A DNA stretch of 59,207 nt, counting the filler, from an uncultured virus (IMG/VR IMGVR_UViG_2049941000_000702) (Duplodnaviria > Heunggongvirae > Uroviricota > Caudoviricetes). It is 19 parts of one record of this genome, joined end to end, with 100 filler letters (N's around TTAATTAATTAA, not from the genome) between each part and the next. Parts side by side here need not be neighbours in the genome. Positions count along the whole stretch, not along the records: positions 48,482 to 55,438 come from IMGVR_UViG_2049941000_000702; 18 more parts are not named here. One strand, given 5' to 3'. Positions within the stretch are counted from its first letter, which is position 1, and every line of letters starts with the position of its first letter. The position numbers and the translations under genes are program-made. Positions 4,168 through 53,304 of the stretch are shown piece by piece. The notes beneath the pieces were generated by a model. It was given only the letters and a program-made list of their open reading frames with translations, did not search any database and was not told the origin of the DNA.

Positions 4168-5117
4168 TTATTCAGTCACAAGCTCACACATAAATGTGAC
4201 TTTAACGTCCACATCCTCCGGCGAAAGCGTAAAACAAAACCCGTCCTGCGACAGACGGGAATCCGATGCGGATATAGTGCCGTAGGTGCTGTCGTTCAGT
4301 CGCTGCCATTTCCACTGGAGGTAGGCAGACGCACCAAATGCCGCGCGAAGGGCAGTGATGTTCGTGATGCGCTGGGAGCCATGGTAAATGACTGCCGAAA
4401 GGACAGTTGCAACAGCGCTGTTCTTGAAAACTGTCCCCCGCGAGGAATCGATCCTAAGCACTGTCGCATCCTGGCCCTTTGCTCCGGTTAGGCAGGTGGG
4501 ATCGCTTTCGTCAGTGCTCCCGTCGGCATATGTGGTGATCGTCTTTTGCCACATATATTTGCCATCTTCCCAGGGAGGCGCGTTGGCGGACCAGCCCTGG
4601 GTGGGTGCAGTCGAAGATGAGGTGCTCAGGGCGTATTGCACAACGACACTGGCCACGCTACTCTCCTGCAGCGCGCTCACATCGTCCTCGATCGCGCCCA
4701 CCCGCAGGTTGATGCCCCTGTTGGACGACAGATCCAGCATCTCGCCAAAATTGGCCGCAACATGGGACGTTGTAATCGTCCCCGCCTTTATATTACTGCC
4801 CTCGATGGTAGCTGCGGCTATCTTGTCGCCGGTGATCGTGCCTGACAGGATTTCGTTAGCCGTTATCGTCGCAGCAGCAATCTGCTCAGCCGTGACAGAC
4901 CTTGCCACAAGCACACTTCCGGACAGCTGCTGCCGGTACTTTGCCTGGCTCAGTTCCTGCGTGGTCAGTGTGCCGCTCTGGGCGTTGATCTCGTATATGA
5001 GGCCGTCCGCCCCGGTGATGATCAGCCGCTCCGTGGCCAGCGTACCGGACTGGATGACATCCGCGTTCAGGGAGACAATCTTGCCTTCGGTGATGCTGGC
5101 GTCAGCGATCTGCGCCG
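4168..5117 (-). CDS. Large tail protein C-terminal part, variant 1
   Basis: Ends KVTFMCELVTE*; homologous to 16483-17915 and 27083-29305. Confidence 0.85.
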
Positions 5118-38701: not shown

Positions 38702-39153
38702 CCCGGCTGCCGCGCTCATCCAGCGTGATCGTATGATGAGCGCCTTCCGCCTTTCTGGCTTCGATTGGTTCCACGACGACATATGTCCCCAACGGCAGCA
38801 CCCTCGCCAGGAGGGCGGGCACCTTGATTTCGGTACCCTTACGCTTACGAGCTTTTATGTCGGATATTCGTCGACTGGCAGGTTTNNNNNNNNNNGGTAT
38901 CCTAGGCATGGCTGTACTGACCTCCCGCGGTATTGCGCCCCATCTCAGGAGCCTTTCCCGCTCTTTACCGAGCTTCATACGGCGGAATAAACGCATTCGG
39001 TCGCATGTCGGAGTATCAGAGTCTTTGTAACCCCTCACGCGGGGTCAGACAGGAATTTCACCTATCAAATCAGCGCAAAGTTCAATTTCCAATTTAGAAA
39101 TTGGCCTGTTTTATTGCGCGTTTCTGCGCAGATTGTCAGGCAACAGAGCGCAC
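38702..39153 (-). mobile_element. Group II intron, 5' part (domain I), inserted in the major tail protein gene
   Basis: GUGCG start at the point where tail-protein homology breaks; GGUGAAAUUCC motif; EBS1 GUCGUC (38775-38780) pairs with exon GAUGAC; EBS2 CGAAU (38866-38870) in a hairpin loop pairs with exon AUUCG. Confidence 0.75.
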
Positions 39154-44414: not shown

Positions 44415-45655
44415 GGACTCAACGATCTTGATGCGGTCCTTAAGGACGGGCGACTGCACGACCATGTCCCGNNNNNNNNNNCGACTCTACGATCTTGATG
44501 CGGTCCTTAAGGACGGGCGACTGCACGACCATGTCCCGCGCCACGTCGAATACTATGCTTGCCTGCTGCCGGTCGTTCGCGCAGCCGTAGATCTCCGCGC
44601 CTTCCTCGTGGTCAGCGCAGAGCATGTACAGCGCGACCGCCGCGGCGAGCTCGCTGTTGTGCGTAGGCACGAAGGAGCGCCCCGCCAGGTAGCAGCGGCT
44701 GGGGCTGTCGACCTGGATACAGCGCATTTTCACNNNNNNNNNNGACCAGCACCAACGCGGTAAGGTCGCTGGTAGATGACAGGTCAAGCCCCGCGTAGCA
44801 GGCCCGGCCCTCGAGATCATCCGCTGTATACATATCGCCGCAGGCGTCCCACTTGTNNNNNNNNNNGGTCCTCGAACGCGGTGAAGCGTATAGTGTACAG
44901 GGTCTCTCCCGTCGGTATCCCGTACCGGGCGGACGGTTCATCCGTCATGGCGTTCTTTATGCCCAGGCTCCACAGCAGCTCACGCACATCCTCCGCCAGC
45001 TGCTTTACGGTACTCACGTAGGTGCTCTGGGACTTCACCGTGCTTACGCTGCCGTCGGAATCCATCAGCCCCTGCAGCAGCGCCCACCGCTGCGCCGCGG
45101 AGGCGCACAGGTATTCGTTCGGTATGTGTTTCTCCCTGAAGCAGCGCAGNNNNNNNNNNCCATGGGCATCCATCGCACGGACGTGTTCGTCCACTGGCAG
45201 AGATGGAACTGCCTGAACTGTATCTCCTCCGCGGGATTCTCCCTTGCCGACTGGCAGCGCTGCCTGTAGTACTCCATATCCACCGTCCTGCCCAGTGACG
45301 GGTTCGCCGCCTTCCAAACGCCTGGATCGGTCCAGTCGGCCGTGTCCGGAGCGCTGTACACCACGGGATAGAACGTGGGATCGTACTTCCTGCCCTCGAG
45401 CTGGTCTATCGCCTTCCGGTGCACTTCGTAGCATATGCTGTGCCGGTCGGAGCCCGCAGTGGTTATTACGAAGTTCAGCGGCTGTTTTCTCGCAGCGCCG
45501 GAGCCCTGAGTCATCGTCTCGTACAGGCGGCGGTTGCTTTGGCCGAGCAGCTCGTCGAAAATGCAGGCGTGCACGTTGTACCCGTACTTGCTGGCGACTT
45601 CGCTGGACAACGCCTGGTATATGCTCCGGGTGGGCATGTATACGAGCCGCTTCTG
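44415..45655 (-). CDS. Terminase large subunit type B with LAGLIDADG intein (fragments)
   Basis: Intein end CIQVDSPSRCYLAGRSFVPTHN|SELAAAV (junction 44656/44655); endonuclease QRWALLQGLMDSDG (44867-45149); Walker B CIFDEL and ITTAG (45160-45655). Confidence 0.88.
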
Positions 45656-45665
45656 NNNNNNNNNN

Positions 45666-46444
45666 GGCGTTCCAGCGGTCGTAGGCGATCTCCCGGATAT
45701 TGAACCTCTCGCCCAGTTTCAGTATGTACTGTTCTATGAACCCATAGTGCACCACATTGCCTTCGGTTGTATGCAGGTAACCCTGCTTTTCCCATTTGTC
45801 GTACATGACGTGGTCCCTGCGCACCCTGAGTTTCAGCGTGTCTTCCGGCAGCCAGAAGTGGGGGATGACTATGTAATTCTCATCCTCGTCCCTCGGCGGG
45901 AACACCAGCACCATTGCGGTCAGGTCGCTGGTAGAAGACAAGTCCAGCCCGGCATAGCATTCCCTGCCCTCCAGTTCGGATTCATCCACAGCTCCTCCGC
46001 ATTCGTCCCACTTGTCCATGGGCATCCAGCGCACCGACTGCTTGACCCACTGGTTCAGACGCAGCTGTCGGAACATGTTCTCGTCAGCAGGCGTTTCCTG
46101 GGCTTTCCTGAACGCGTCGCGTACCTTGTCTATGCCTATGGTCTTGTCCAGCGAGGGATTCGCCTTATACCAGTTCTTTTCGTCCGTCCAGTCCGCCTCG
46201 TCCGGCAGTCCGTACAGCACGGGATAAAAGCGCGGGTCGTCTTTCCTGCCCTCTATGATGTCCAGCGCCTTCTGGTGCACTTCCCAGCATATGGACTCCC
46301 TGTCGGTGCCGGCGGTGGTAAGCAGGAACCACAGCGGCTGTCTCCTCGCGTCGCCCGAGCCCTGGGTCATAACGTCGTACAGCGCCCTGGTCGGCTGCGT
46401 GTGCAGCTCGTCGAATATACTGTACGCGTCGCTGGCGATGCCCC
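45666..46444 (-). CDS. Terminase large subunit type A (partial)
   Basis: IFDELH, LTTAG, KANPSL, FRQLRLNQW, YAGLDLSSTSDLTA, IAYDRWNA. Confidence 0.95.
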
Positions 46445-50113: not shown

Positions 50114-50534
50114 AATGGTTTCCTCCAGCTTAGTCGTTATCAATGGTCTACCAGTTGCCATAAGATGATTATTGATTAGGAAGTNNNNNNNNNNNNNNNN
50201 NNNNNNNNNNNNNNNNNNNNNNNNNNNNNNNNNNNNNNNNNNNNNNNNNNNNNNNNNNNNNNNNNNNNNNNNNNNNNNNNNNNNNNNNNNNNNNNNNNNN
50301 NNNNNNNNNNNNNNNNNNNNNNNNNNNNNNNNNNNNNNNNACAGGATTTCAGGACGGAGCTCTTCGAGATACTAATGGCCACCGTAAACGGAAGGAACGA
50401 CCTTGAAGTCATCGGCCTCACGCACAGGGAGACCGACAGACTCATCCGCCGCCTTCGCGCACAGCTTCTGAATCAGGTGAACTGAGGATCGAACACACTG
50501 AATTATCTTTCAAATCAAGGAGGACACTAAACAC

Positions 50535-50657
50535 ATGTGCATTATCTGCGTATCACCCCAGGGCGTTCGCCAGCCCGACACACAAACCATCAGGACCATG
50601 TTCCTACGGAATCCGCACGGAGCGGGATACATGTACGCACGCAACGGCAGGGTACAC
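50535..50657 (+). CDS. Class II glutamine amidotransferase, N-terminus
   Basis: MCII (Ntn Cys) ... NPHGAGYMY. Confidence 0.8.
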
Positions 50658-50820
50658 NNNNNNNNNNNNNNNNNNNNNNNNNNNNNNNNNNNNNNNNNNN
50701 NNNNNNNNNNNNNNNNNNNNNNNNNNNNNNNNNNNNNNNNNNNNNNNNNNNNNNNNNNNNNNNNNNNNNNNNNNNNNNNNNNNNNNNNNNNNNAGCGAGG
50801 TGACCGAATGGAACACACTG

Positions 50821-50886
50821 CCCGCCTGACGAGCGCCGGACGGCGACCGGCCGAAACCGGGCACGCTACCCGGTCGCGGGAAGCCG
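50821..50886 (+). ncRNA. Type I hammerhead ribozyme with loop II pseudoknot
   Basis: Stem I CCCGC/GCGGG, CUGACGA, stem II, GAAA, stem III CCGGG/CCCGG, GUC cleavage triplet; loop II CGGC pairs with 3' GCCG. Confidence 0.92.
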
Positions 50887-51288
50887 CAGAAAAACACAGG
50901 GCGAAAGCCCGGAAANNNNNNNNNNNNNNNNNNNNNNNNNNNNNNNNNNNNNNNNNNNNNNNNNNNNNNNNNNNNNNNNNNNNNNNNNNNNNNNNNNNNN
51001 NNNNNNNNNNNNNNNNNNNNNNNNNNNNNNNNNNNNNNNNNNNNNNNNNNNNNNNNNNNNNNNNNNNNNNNNNNNNNNNNNNNNNNNNNNNNNNNNNNNN
51101 NNNNNNNNNNNNNNNNNNNNNNNNNNNNNNNNNNNNNNNNNNNNNNNNNNNNNNNNNNNNNNNNNNNNNNNNNNNNNNNNNNNNNNNNNNNNNNNNNNNN
51201 NNNNNNNNNNNNNNNNNNNNNNNNNNNNNNNNNNNNNNNNNNNNNNNNNNNNNNNNNNNNNNNNNNNNNNNNNNNNNNNNNNNNNNNC

Positions 51289-52057
51289 TGACCCAAGCCC
51301 TGCAGATAAGCCCGGAACGCCGGGAACGCTGGTGCCAAGAGGTAGACCCATACTTCCTGCAGGTACTCAACAGGAGAAGGCCGACCACATCCGAACAGCT
51401 GGCCCAACTTTGGTACGACGACCGGGACTGGGAGTACCACGCACACGACCACTACGACCGGAGCCGGTACCACCTTTTGAACCTCCATGCGGTGTGGCAG
51501 AAAGGCACTATCGAGTTCCGGGCCTTCAACAGCACGCTCCATGCCGGTGAGATAAAAGCCTACATACAGCTTTGCATGGCCATAAGCCACCAAGCCCTCA
51601 CGGTAAGCACAGCCAGCCCCGCAAGGCCGGTCACGGACAACCCCGCCTACACCTTCCGGTGCTGGCTCCTCAGACTGGGCCTGAACGGCGAGGAATTCAA
51701 GACCGCCCGGACGCACCTGCTCAAGCACCTGCCCGGCAACGCCGCNNNNNNNNNNGAGCCCCACGAGGCCGGTGACGGACAACCCCGCATACACCTTCCG
51801 GTGCTGGCTCCTCAGGCTGGGGCTGAACGGCGAGGAATTCAAGACCGCCCGGACACACCTTTTAAAGCACCTGCCCGGCAACGCNNNNNNNNNNAAGGCC
51901 GGTCACGGACAACCCCGCATACACCTTCCGGTGCTGGCTCCTGAGACTGGGGCTGAACGGCGAAGAATTCAAGACCGCCCGGACACACCTTTTAAAGCAC
52001 CTGCCCGGCAACGCCGCATGGCGCAACGGGGCCGAGACACAGCGCCGGGCCGGCTGA
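51289..52057 (+). CDS. Putative amidoligase (COOH-NH2 ligase), C-terminal fragments of three variants
   Basis: [53 protein letters not shown]...EFKTARTHL. Confidence 0.88.
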
Positions 52058-52258
52058 AGGAGACGCACATAAAACACAGGGCGAAAGCCCGGAAAGGAAC
52101 ATACCCCATGAAGAAGTACATCGCCGTCATCACCGAGGATGACATCCGCTCCGGTNNNNNNNNNNCGGCTGAGGGCTCACAAATCAAGAGGAGCCTTCAC
52201 CCGGAGCCACAGGCTCACAAATCAAGCAGGGTATTATGCCCGGAAAGGAACACATACC

Positions 52259-52501
52259 ATGAAGTTTATGGACCTGAACGACCGCAGGACCTACACACTC
52301 TCTGAAATCAGGAAGGAGTGGGAACTGCTCCGGAATCAGGAACCGGAGAACCACGCACAGGATTTCAGGACGGAGATCTTTGAGATCCTGATGGCCACCG
52401 TAAACGGAAGGAACGACCTTGAGGTCATCGGTCTCACGCACAGGGAGACCGACAGGCTAATCCGCCGCCTTCGAGCACAGCTTCTGAATCAGGTGAACTG
52501 A
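52259..52501 (+). CDS. Hypothetical phage protein (second copy at 50341-50484)
   Basis: GAAAGGA RBS; the two copies differ mostly at synonymous sites. Confidence 0.7.
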   Translation: MKFMDLNDRRTYTLSEIRKEWELLRNQEPENHAQDFRTEIFEILMATVNGRNDLEVIGLTHRETDRLIRRLRAQLLNQVN

Positions 52502-52550
52502 AAACCGAACACACTGAATTATCTTTCAAATCAAGGAGGACACTAAACAC

Positions 52551-53251
52551 ATGTGNNNNNNNNNNNNNNNNNNNNNNNNNNNNNNNNNNNNNNNNNNNNN
52601 NNNNNNNNNNNNNNNNNNNNNNNNNNNNNNNNNNNNNNNNNNNNNNNNNNNNNNNNNNNNNNNNNNNNNNNNNNNNNNNNNNNNNNNNNNNNNNNNNNNN
52701 NNNNNNNNNNNNNNNNNNNNNNNNNNNNNNNNNNNNNNNNNNNNNNNNNNNNNNNNNNNNNNNNNNNNNNNNNNNNNNNNNNNNNNNNNNNNNNNNNNNN
52801 NNNNNNNNNNNNNNNNNNNNNNNNNNNNNNNNNNNNNNNNNNNNNNNNNNNNNNNNNNNNNNNNNNNNNNNNNNNNNNNNNNNNNNNNNNNNNNNNNNNN
52901 NNNNNNNNNNNNNNNNNNNNNNNNNNNCCCGGGCACATGAAAGCGCTGGACGTGGACTGCAGGTGCGGGATAGCACACAACGGCATCATCGACATCACCA
53001 CCGACCCGCGCAACAGGGAATACAGCGACACGGCCATATTCATTACGGACTACCTGACGCGGATCATCCGGAGACCGTCCGACCTTAAGGATGAACGGAG
53101 ACTGGAGCTTATATATAAACTGGCACAATCCAAGTTCGCCATCATGGATGGCAAAGGCTACATTGCCACAGTCGGCAGGTTCGTAAATGAAGACGGACTT
53201 CTCTACAGCAACCTGAGTTACATACCAGCGTACACGGACCTGCCGTTCTGA
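52551..53251 (+). CDS. Class II glutamine amidotransferase (gapped)
   Basis: ATGTG start as at 50535; GIAHNGII...SDTAIF motifs. Confidence 0.8.
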
Positions 53252-53282: not shown

Positions 53283-53304
53283 GCCGCCTGCGGGCGGCTT
53301 TCTT
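53283..53304 (+). terminator. Intrinsic terminator
   Basis: GCCGCC-TGCG-GGCGGC-TTTCTT. Confidence 0.75.

Follow-up and report, generated by a model that had tools for sequence, protein, structure and literature searches.

A short readable island of DNA in front of a phage amidoligase gene raises the question of whether the RNA transcribed from it could cut itself, and of what such a cut would do to the message of the gene that follows. The whole stretch of DNA analysed here, referred to below as the window, is 59,207 nucleotides long, filler included, and it belongs to a gut phage; a nuclease domain of the terminase large subunit and a protein of the Amidoligase_2 family mark it as phage DNA. 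The island covers 122 readable bases (50794-50915), and both of its flanks are N-masked (50658-50793 and 50916-51287). We consider it probable that positions 50821-50886 encode a type I hammerhead ribozyme that would cut the amidoligase operon transcript upstream of the amidoligase RBS. The element is intergenic and co-directional with the phage genes, and one copy of it is visible, about 11% of the window being N mask. Its parts, together with two neighbouring features of the island, are the following.

50797-50810, + strand: GAGGTG (50797-50802) and ATG (50808-50810), read directly
50821-50886, + strand: hammerhead element, type I, from the sequence reading of the 122-base island
50821-50825, + strand: 5' strand of stem I, CCCGC, pairing with 50876-50880
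50826-50832, + strand: catalytic core C3-A9, CUGACGA, read directly
50833-50852, + strand: stem II hairpin with a G50833-C50852 pair, bulged C50834, a 5-bp helix (GCCGG 50835-50839 with CCGGC 50847-50851) and the loop ACGGCGA (50840-50846)
50853-50856, + strand: core G12 A13 A14 and A15.1, GAAA, read directly
50856-50874, + strand: stem III hairpin, A50856-U50874 and CCGGG 50857-50861 with CCCGG 50869-50873, loop CACGCUA
50875-50876, + strand: C17 and predicted cleavage site, from the hammerhead consensus (GUC 50873-50875, then the cut)
50876-50880, + strand: 3' strand of stem I, GCGGG, pairing with 50821-50825
50883-50886, + strand: 3' strand of the pseudoknot, GCCG, complementary to CGGC 50841-50844 in loop II
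50899-50910, + strand: hairpin GGGC-GAAA-GCCC, directly before a purine-rich RBS (GGAAA...) that is interrupted by the mask

The first-pass annotation of this island had read a complete hammerhead core there, and all of its segments (CUGACGA, GAAA and GUC) are indeed present. The three stems that it described are present as well and covary in relatives, and the proposed pseudoknot between loop II and the sequence 3' of stem I was borne out both by complementarity and by the finding, presented below, that cognate partners pair better than shuffled ones. The topology is that of type I, with stem I open and loops closing stems II and III. The nucleotide at the cleavage site, where H17 (not G) is the rule, is C50875, and the cut is predicted between C50875 and G50876. 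Core position N7 varies in relatives (C, U, A), as this position predicts; the invariance of GAAA across siblings is no independent observation, as CGAAA was fixed in the pattern scans. A coaxial extension of stem I over the tail, formed by CUG 50818-50820 with CAG 50887-50889, was considered and rejected, as it is not kept in the siblings inspected. Judged by its sequence, the element is a true type I hammerhead, pseudoknot included.

A type I descriptor that asked for the core and for three stems, each of 4 bp or more, and that permitted small insertions at the stem II base, gave a single match in the whole window, at the site of the element; a stricter version of the descriptor, without the stem II bulge, misses it. 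Comparison with the Rfam hammerhead models, which the first-pass annotation had named as a check, gave a different outcome: no model reached threshold on the window. At the gathering score no hammerhead was found over the window (RF00163, RF02276 and the other hammerhead models alike), and at E<=10 none was found over 50500-51200 (701 nt). When the island alone was searched at E<=10, a partial Hammerhead_II match was obtained (13.5 bits, gathering 37, E 1.9), in which the CUGANGA box was missed. Eight sibling copies from three phage records gave a single Hammerhead_1 match (21.8 bits, gathering 34), which was misaligned. Because every Rfam model misses this class, it is invisible to standard annotation.

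Relatives of the element were recognised by direct comparison. In a blastn search of the island against a phage collection, the same element was found in three phages, namely PV036454 and PV036419 (both Christensenellales phages, Ca. Heliusvirales), with three and two copies, respectively, and Salisaeta icosahedral phage 1, with two copies. Neither megablast nor blastn of the neighbouring stretches against that collection gave a match or a close annotated relative. A pattern scan that constrained nothing but the core, CGAAA and the base of stem I returned at least 125 viral-contig loci. Two loci (L005 and L022) with a stem II unlike that of hammerheads were removed before alignment and counts; 127 unique copies were aligned once duplicates had been taken out, and a covariance model, R1, was built from this alignment. 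R1 scores the window copy, which belongs to its seed, at 63.2 bits, within the sibling range of 39.5-81.3 bits. With filters on or off, R1 found no second copy in the visible part of the window; relatives carry 2-4 hammerhead copies each. Among the matches listed, the form of stem II present in the window (a G-C pair, a 1-nt bulge and the helix) occurs in 14 of 125, and the commonest form, with an unpaired U after A9, in 89 of 125. A decayed copy was also encountered (L274 4903-4980, 28.7 bits), which has kept stems II and III, GAAAC and GUCGCGGGA and has lost the CUGANGA box.

All helices of the proposed fold covary. In the 114 model-aligned copies of the pattern-scan set, 95.7% of the stem II and III cells are standard pairs. 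Both sides differ in 289 cells, and such two-sided changes affect 8 pairs (five of the six in stem II and three of the five in stem III). The covariation score of these 114 copies was reached by none of 500 shuffles, and when the 3' partners were slid by 1-3 columns, pairing fell to 31-42%. Because the first pattern had fixed stem I, a second scan was run with the stem II base fixed and stem I left free. It yielded 123 unique copies, and at least 4 contiguous stem I pairs were formed in 110 of them (exactly five in 91), with the compensatory variants CCCAC/GUGGG, CCCGU/ACGGG, CCUGU/ACAGG and CCAUAG/CUAUG. A third set was gathered through amidoligase protein homology, independently of the RNA; its 26 matches in 22 loci were 95.8% paired, and 0 of 500 shuffles reached their score. 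For the pseudoknot, the longest Watson-Crick run between loop II and the tail averaged 3.61 with the cognate partner versus 3.07 (sd 0.07) with shuffled ones, none of 500 being as high, and the alternative pairings GGUC/GACC, GGGA/UCCC, GCGG/CCGC, GCUCA/UGAGC and UGACC/GGUCA were found. By these comparisons, the window element belongs to a large phage hammerhead class.

What such a ribozyme would act upon can be seen from the surrounding genes, those flanking the island being all on the + strand:

50535 onward, + strand: fragment starting like the N-terminal-nucleophile amidotransferase of related phages, from gene order
51288-51944, + strand: visible part of the amidoligase (Pfam Amidoligase_2, E 8.7e-23), its start lying in the mask 50916-51287
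52108-52305, + strand: small ORF after the amidoligase
52259-52501, + strand: small ORF after the amidoligase
52551-53251, + strand: full amidotransferase-like gene, from gene order
53283-53298, + strand: terminator-like hairpin at the end of the gene series

The amidoligase shares 82-87% identity with 13 viral-contig relatives. In relatives, the protein starts 5 residues before the conserved FGIE motif. In PV036419 the CDS annotated as 'amidoligase enzyme' (L003 2402-3958) is 518 aa long and begins at a GTG, with an Arg/Gly-rich N-terminal extension of about 224 aa; this annotation looks over-extended, the conserved protein starting with MKTQTFGIELE, and it shows how easily amidoligases gain spurious N-terminal extensions. 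Of 20 evaluable relatives, 14 carry the hammerhead immediately after the amidoligase; in the window it precedes the gene, and the site just downstream holds none. Since this arrangement differs from that of most evaluable relatives and the region carries repeats, the window copy may sit at a rearranged junction. A direct repeat of 199 nt (50341-50539 and 52357-52555, 94% identity, 2016 nt apart) spans the 3' end of a small ORF, an RBS and the first codons (MC...) of the amidotransferase-like gene, and its upstream copy looks like a truncated amidotransferase duplicate that ends at or before the hammerhead.

Several further peculiarities of the window may be recorded here. At 51615-52024 there are three tandem copies of the terminal ~138 nt of the amidoligase gene, the second and third copies being 91% and 83% identical to the first, at spacings of 142 and 130 nt. 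From copy to copy the frame moves by +1, so that only the third copy reads into the natural C-terminus (stop at 52055-52057), and the junctions are hidden by 10-nt masks. This triplication could be either an assembly artefact or a real rearrangement; a diversity-generating retroelement was considered as its source and rejected, the differences between copies, compared by eye, not being confined to adenines. On the - strand, Rfam recognises group-II-D1D4-5 at 38914-39061 (39.3 bits, gathering 34.5, E 5e-5), that is, a group II intron in a phage, and a terminase large-subunit ORF with a TerL nuclease domain (E 5.5e-28) occupies 44817-46370. In the translation of the latter, the stretch LLQGLMDSDGSVS resembles, by eye, a LAGLIDADG homing-endonuclease/intein motif. 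Bovine and other gut metagenome runs contain parts of the amidoligase stretch, covering at most 0.44 of the sampled words. Two contigs from RNA libraries map to 51325-51487 and 51459-51650; as the island lies outside both and contigs cannot show RNA ends, they say nothing on cleavage.

The position of the element is consistent with a role in RNA processing, as the first-pass annotation had proposed: the hammerhead stands within a + strand operon, just before a module composed of a hairpin and an RBS, and its cleavage would therefore separate the amidoligase message from upstream RNA. The 25 bases at 50891-50915, comprising the hairpin and GGAAA, are repeated exactly at 52071-52095, where GGAACAUACCCC and then AUG 52108 come next, the repeated segment ending 13 bases before this AUG. 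By analogy with this copy, the amidoligase would start near 50928, in the masked stretch about 52 nt past the cut. An SD-like motif and a start codon follow the cut in 109 of the 125 listed siblings, the median distance being 42 nt. A G+C-rich hairpin ends no more than 5 nt from the SD in 11 of the 91 siblings that could be evaluated, compared with 2.9 expected from shuffles, and the stems of these hairpins covary (GGGC/GCCC, GCGGC/GCCGC, CGGC/GCCG, GCGC/GCGC). The same hairpin is also present without a hammerhead, at 52079-52090 and at L001 ~4327-4345, which makes it an intergenic module of its own in this phage group. The hairpin that, according to the first-pass annotation, elsewhere precedes an RBS does so in a subset of siblings, without being tied to hammerheads. 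A hairpin before an GGAAAGGAAC-type RBS was seen at the gene starts 52079-52108, 52238-52261 and L001 ~4327-4364. The small G+C-rich hairpin may by itself constitute a leader element.

The mechanism that we propose is as follows. The hammerhead would be transcribed within the + strand amidoligase/amidotransferase operon of the tailed phage, and the 4-bp pseudoknot that joins loop II to the tail immediately past stem I would hold its active fold. After transcription, the RNA is predicted to cleave itself between C50875 and G50876. Of the two products, the upstream RNA would have the stem II and III hairpins at its end and a 2',3'-cyclic phosphate as its terminal group, and the downstream RNA, which would keep the small hairpin and the RBS, would start with a 5'-OH some 50 nt ahead of the amidoligase start. 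As a result, the stability and translation of the amidoligase message would be uncoupled from the upstream sequence. Self-cleavage of the window copy and all consequences for expression are deduced here from sequence.

Other explanations of the island have to be weighed against this one. A chance likeness to the hammerhead consensus in G+C-rich DNA might be suspected, as Rfam is silent on the window and the MFE z-scores (-0.68 and -0.89) are unremarkable. However, when 500 sequences matching the window in length and dinucleotide make-up were simulated with an order-1 Markov model, only one contained any match to the descriptor, and the existence of more than a hundred homologous copies with covariation in all helices already contradicts such an origin, the probability of which we regard as negligible. 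Alternatively, the copy could be a relic, decaying or misfolding, that stands at a rearranged junction between genes and has lost efficient cleavage. According to the nearest-neighbour model, the hammerhead fold of the 60-nt element has an energy of -25.3 kcal/mol and the MFE structure -28.4, so that a competing fold is more stable by 3.1 kcal/mol, and for the entire 122-nt island the respective values are -34.5 and -44.8 kcal/mol. Among the 125 listed siblings the hammerhead fold is the MFE structure in 78, the median gap is 0, and 4.8% are as unfavourable as the window copy, which places the latter in the worst 5%. The 199-nt repeat, the triplicated amidoligase 3' end, the position of the hammerhead on the side of the gene opposite to that in most evaluable relatives, and the existence of the decayed L274 copy would all fit with this idea. 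On the other hand, every invariant core nucleotide, the three stems and the pseudoknot are intact in the window, and the R1 score is inside the sibling range. Moreover, the nearest-neighbour model ignores the core tertiary contacts and the pseudoknot with its four G-C pairs; the energy gap is for this reason a warning and no refutation. We thus consider it improbable that the window copy is a relic, and an intact, cleaving hammerhead is the reading that we prefer.

Two alternatives concern translation rather than the ribozyme itself. The first-pass annotation had proposed that a short ORF opened by ATG 50808 is translated through the ribozyme, which would make cleavage sensitive to translation. 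The GAGGTG motif and, 5 nt after it, the ATG are indeed there, and the frame is free of stops up to the mask at 50916, but a conserved separate short ORF did not emerge. Among the 125 listed siblings an ATG within 30 nt upstream, in a frame open through the ribozyme, was found in 8, and in 34 when GTG and TTG were also counted. In the two frames that lack the core UGA, 110 and 113 of these 125 show no stop across the ribozyme, so an open frame there is the compositional norm and is no evidence of coding. Moreover, ATG 50808 shares frame 0 with the amidoligase and would therefore give an N-terminal extension of that protein and no separate short ORF; 160 residues would then precede the LTQAL motif, compared with 127-132 in relatives. 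Ribosomes on a cleaved message would, in addition, run off its stop-less end. Translation from this ATG is accordingly a very improbable basis for control of the ribozyme. A different link to translation, which has some support though it is unlikely, would run through the upstream gene: the core UGA (50827-50829) would serve as the stop codon of that gene and so tie the ribozyme to its translation. A terminating ribosome would then cover stem I and the core, and cleavage would occur only when the upstream gene is untranslated or before the first ribosome arrives. In the window, this UGA could end a frame-1 ORF (...SEVTEWNTLPA*) that is open back to the mask; frame 0 is also open to the mask, and with the upstream region 50658-50793 masked the choice of frame is undecided, the similarity between the 5' part of the island and 52488-52512 being too weak to fix it. 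The UGA frame is stop-free to the locus start (about 48 codons) in 65 of the 125 listed siblings, versus 29 and 28 for the other frames, and, of the 8 copies in the three phage records, 3 have an annotated CDS that ends at the core UGA (L001 3704-4009, L001 4365-4577 and L003 4109-4420). However, at loci with long flanks at least 50 open codons were found in the UGA frame in 6 of 32 copies, the counts for the other two frames being 12 and 16. Where a copy follows the amidoligase, it lies about 40 nt past the amidoligase stop, and an overlap of UGA and stop codon could simply reflect tight gene packing. The excerpts of Perreault et al. (2011; PMC3088659) contain no mention of stop codons, and a literature search combining hammerhead, prophage and stop codon returned nothing relevant. 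Rather doubtful is the wider proposal that in a large share of class copies the UGA of the CUGA box doubles as an upstream stop, so that a ribosome, whether terminating or queued, would physically obstruct stem I and the core, and the ribozyme would read upstream translation and cut only in its absence, releasing an insulated downstream mRNA led by the hairpin.

For the window alone, a hammerhead that cuts the operon transcript in front of the amidoligase would be an ordinary result. The class to which it belongs is abundant in phages, with the window as a clean example, and the covariance model R1 would enable its annotation. The overlap of the core UGA with a stop codon and the hairpin-RBS module after the cut provide two concrete, testable hypotheses on ribozymes of phage operons. 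No paper linking a hammerhead with an amidoligase was found in the literature search.

Among described systems, the Hammerhead_1 family of Rfam (RF00163) has the type I topology and the core in common with the window element. Its 45-position model fails to recognise the phage class, giving no match on the window, and the phage class differs from it by the pseudoknot, by an insertion that follows A9 and by the greater length of stems II and III. The arrangement of the locus is also reminiscent of synthetic insulators of the RiboJ type, which consist of a hammerhead followed by a small hairpin directly before the RBS and give the downstream message a defined 5' end; RiboJ was engineered from a satellite-RNA hammerhead. 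In the window, too, a hammerhead is followed by a small hairpin just before an RBS. The phage hairpin, in contrast to that of RiboJ, also occurs without a hammerhead, and only in 11 of the 91 siblings evaluated does it stand before the SD.

The closest natural counterparts are the hammerheads of phages and prophages described by Perreault et al. (2011; PMC3088659), to which, as far as excerpts of that paper go, the window element is similar in its core and three-way junction. Members of both groups lie between phage genes, often in several copies per operon, as exemplified by the three in PV036454, and pseudoknots were reported in all three hammerhead types. The subclass seen in the window is distinguished by a stem I of 5 bp (CCCGC/GCGGG), by a bulge or additional U following A9 and by pairing of the tail with loop II; its string GUCGCGGGA was not found in ten supplementary files of that paper, one further file being unsearchable as text. 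According to a 2019 review (PMC6765202), the role of bacterial and phage hammerheads was still undefined. Perreault et al. observed that clusters of hammerheads flank prophage genes and that polycistronic constructs of about 2 kb were cleaved in vitro, and they proposed that long phage transcripts are processed in this way into gene-length messages (PMC3088659). Phage hammerheads of this kind have thus been known since 2011 and the window copy is a further member, for which, by analogy, the operon-cutting role that these authors proposed is likely.
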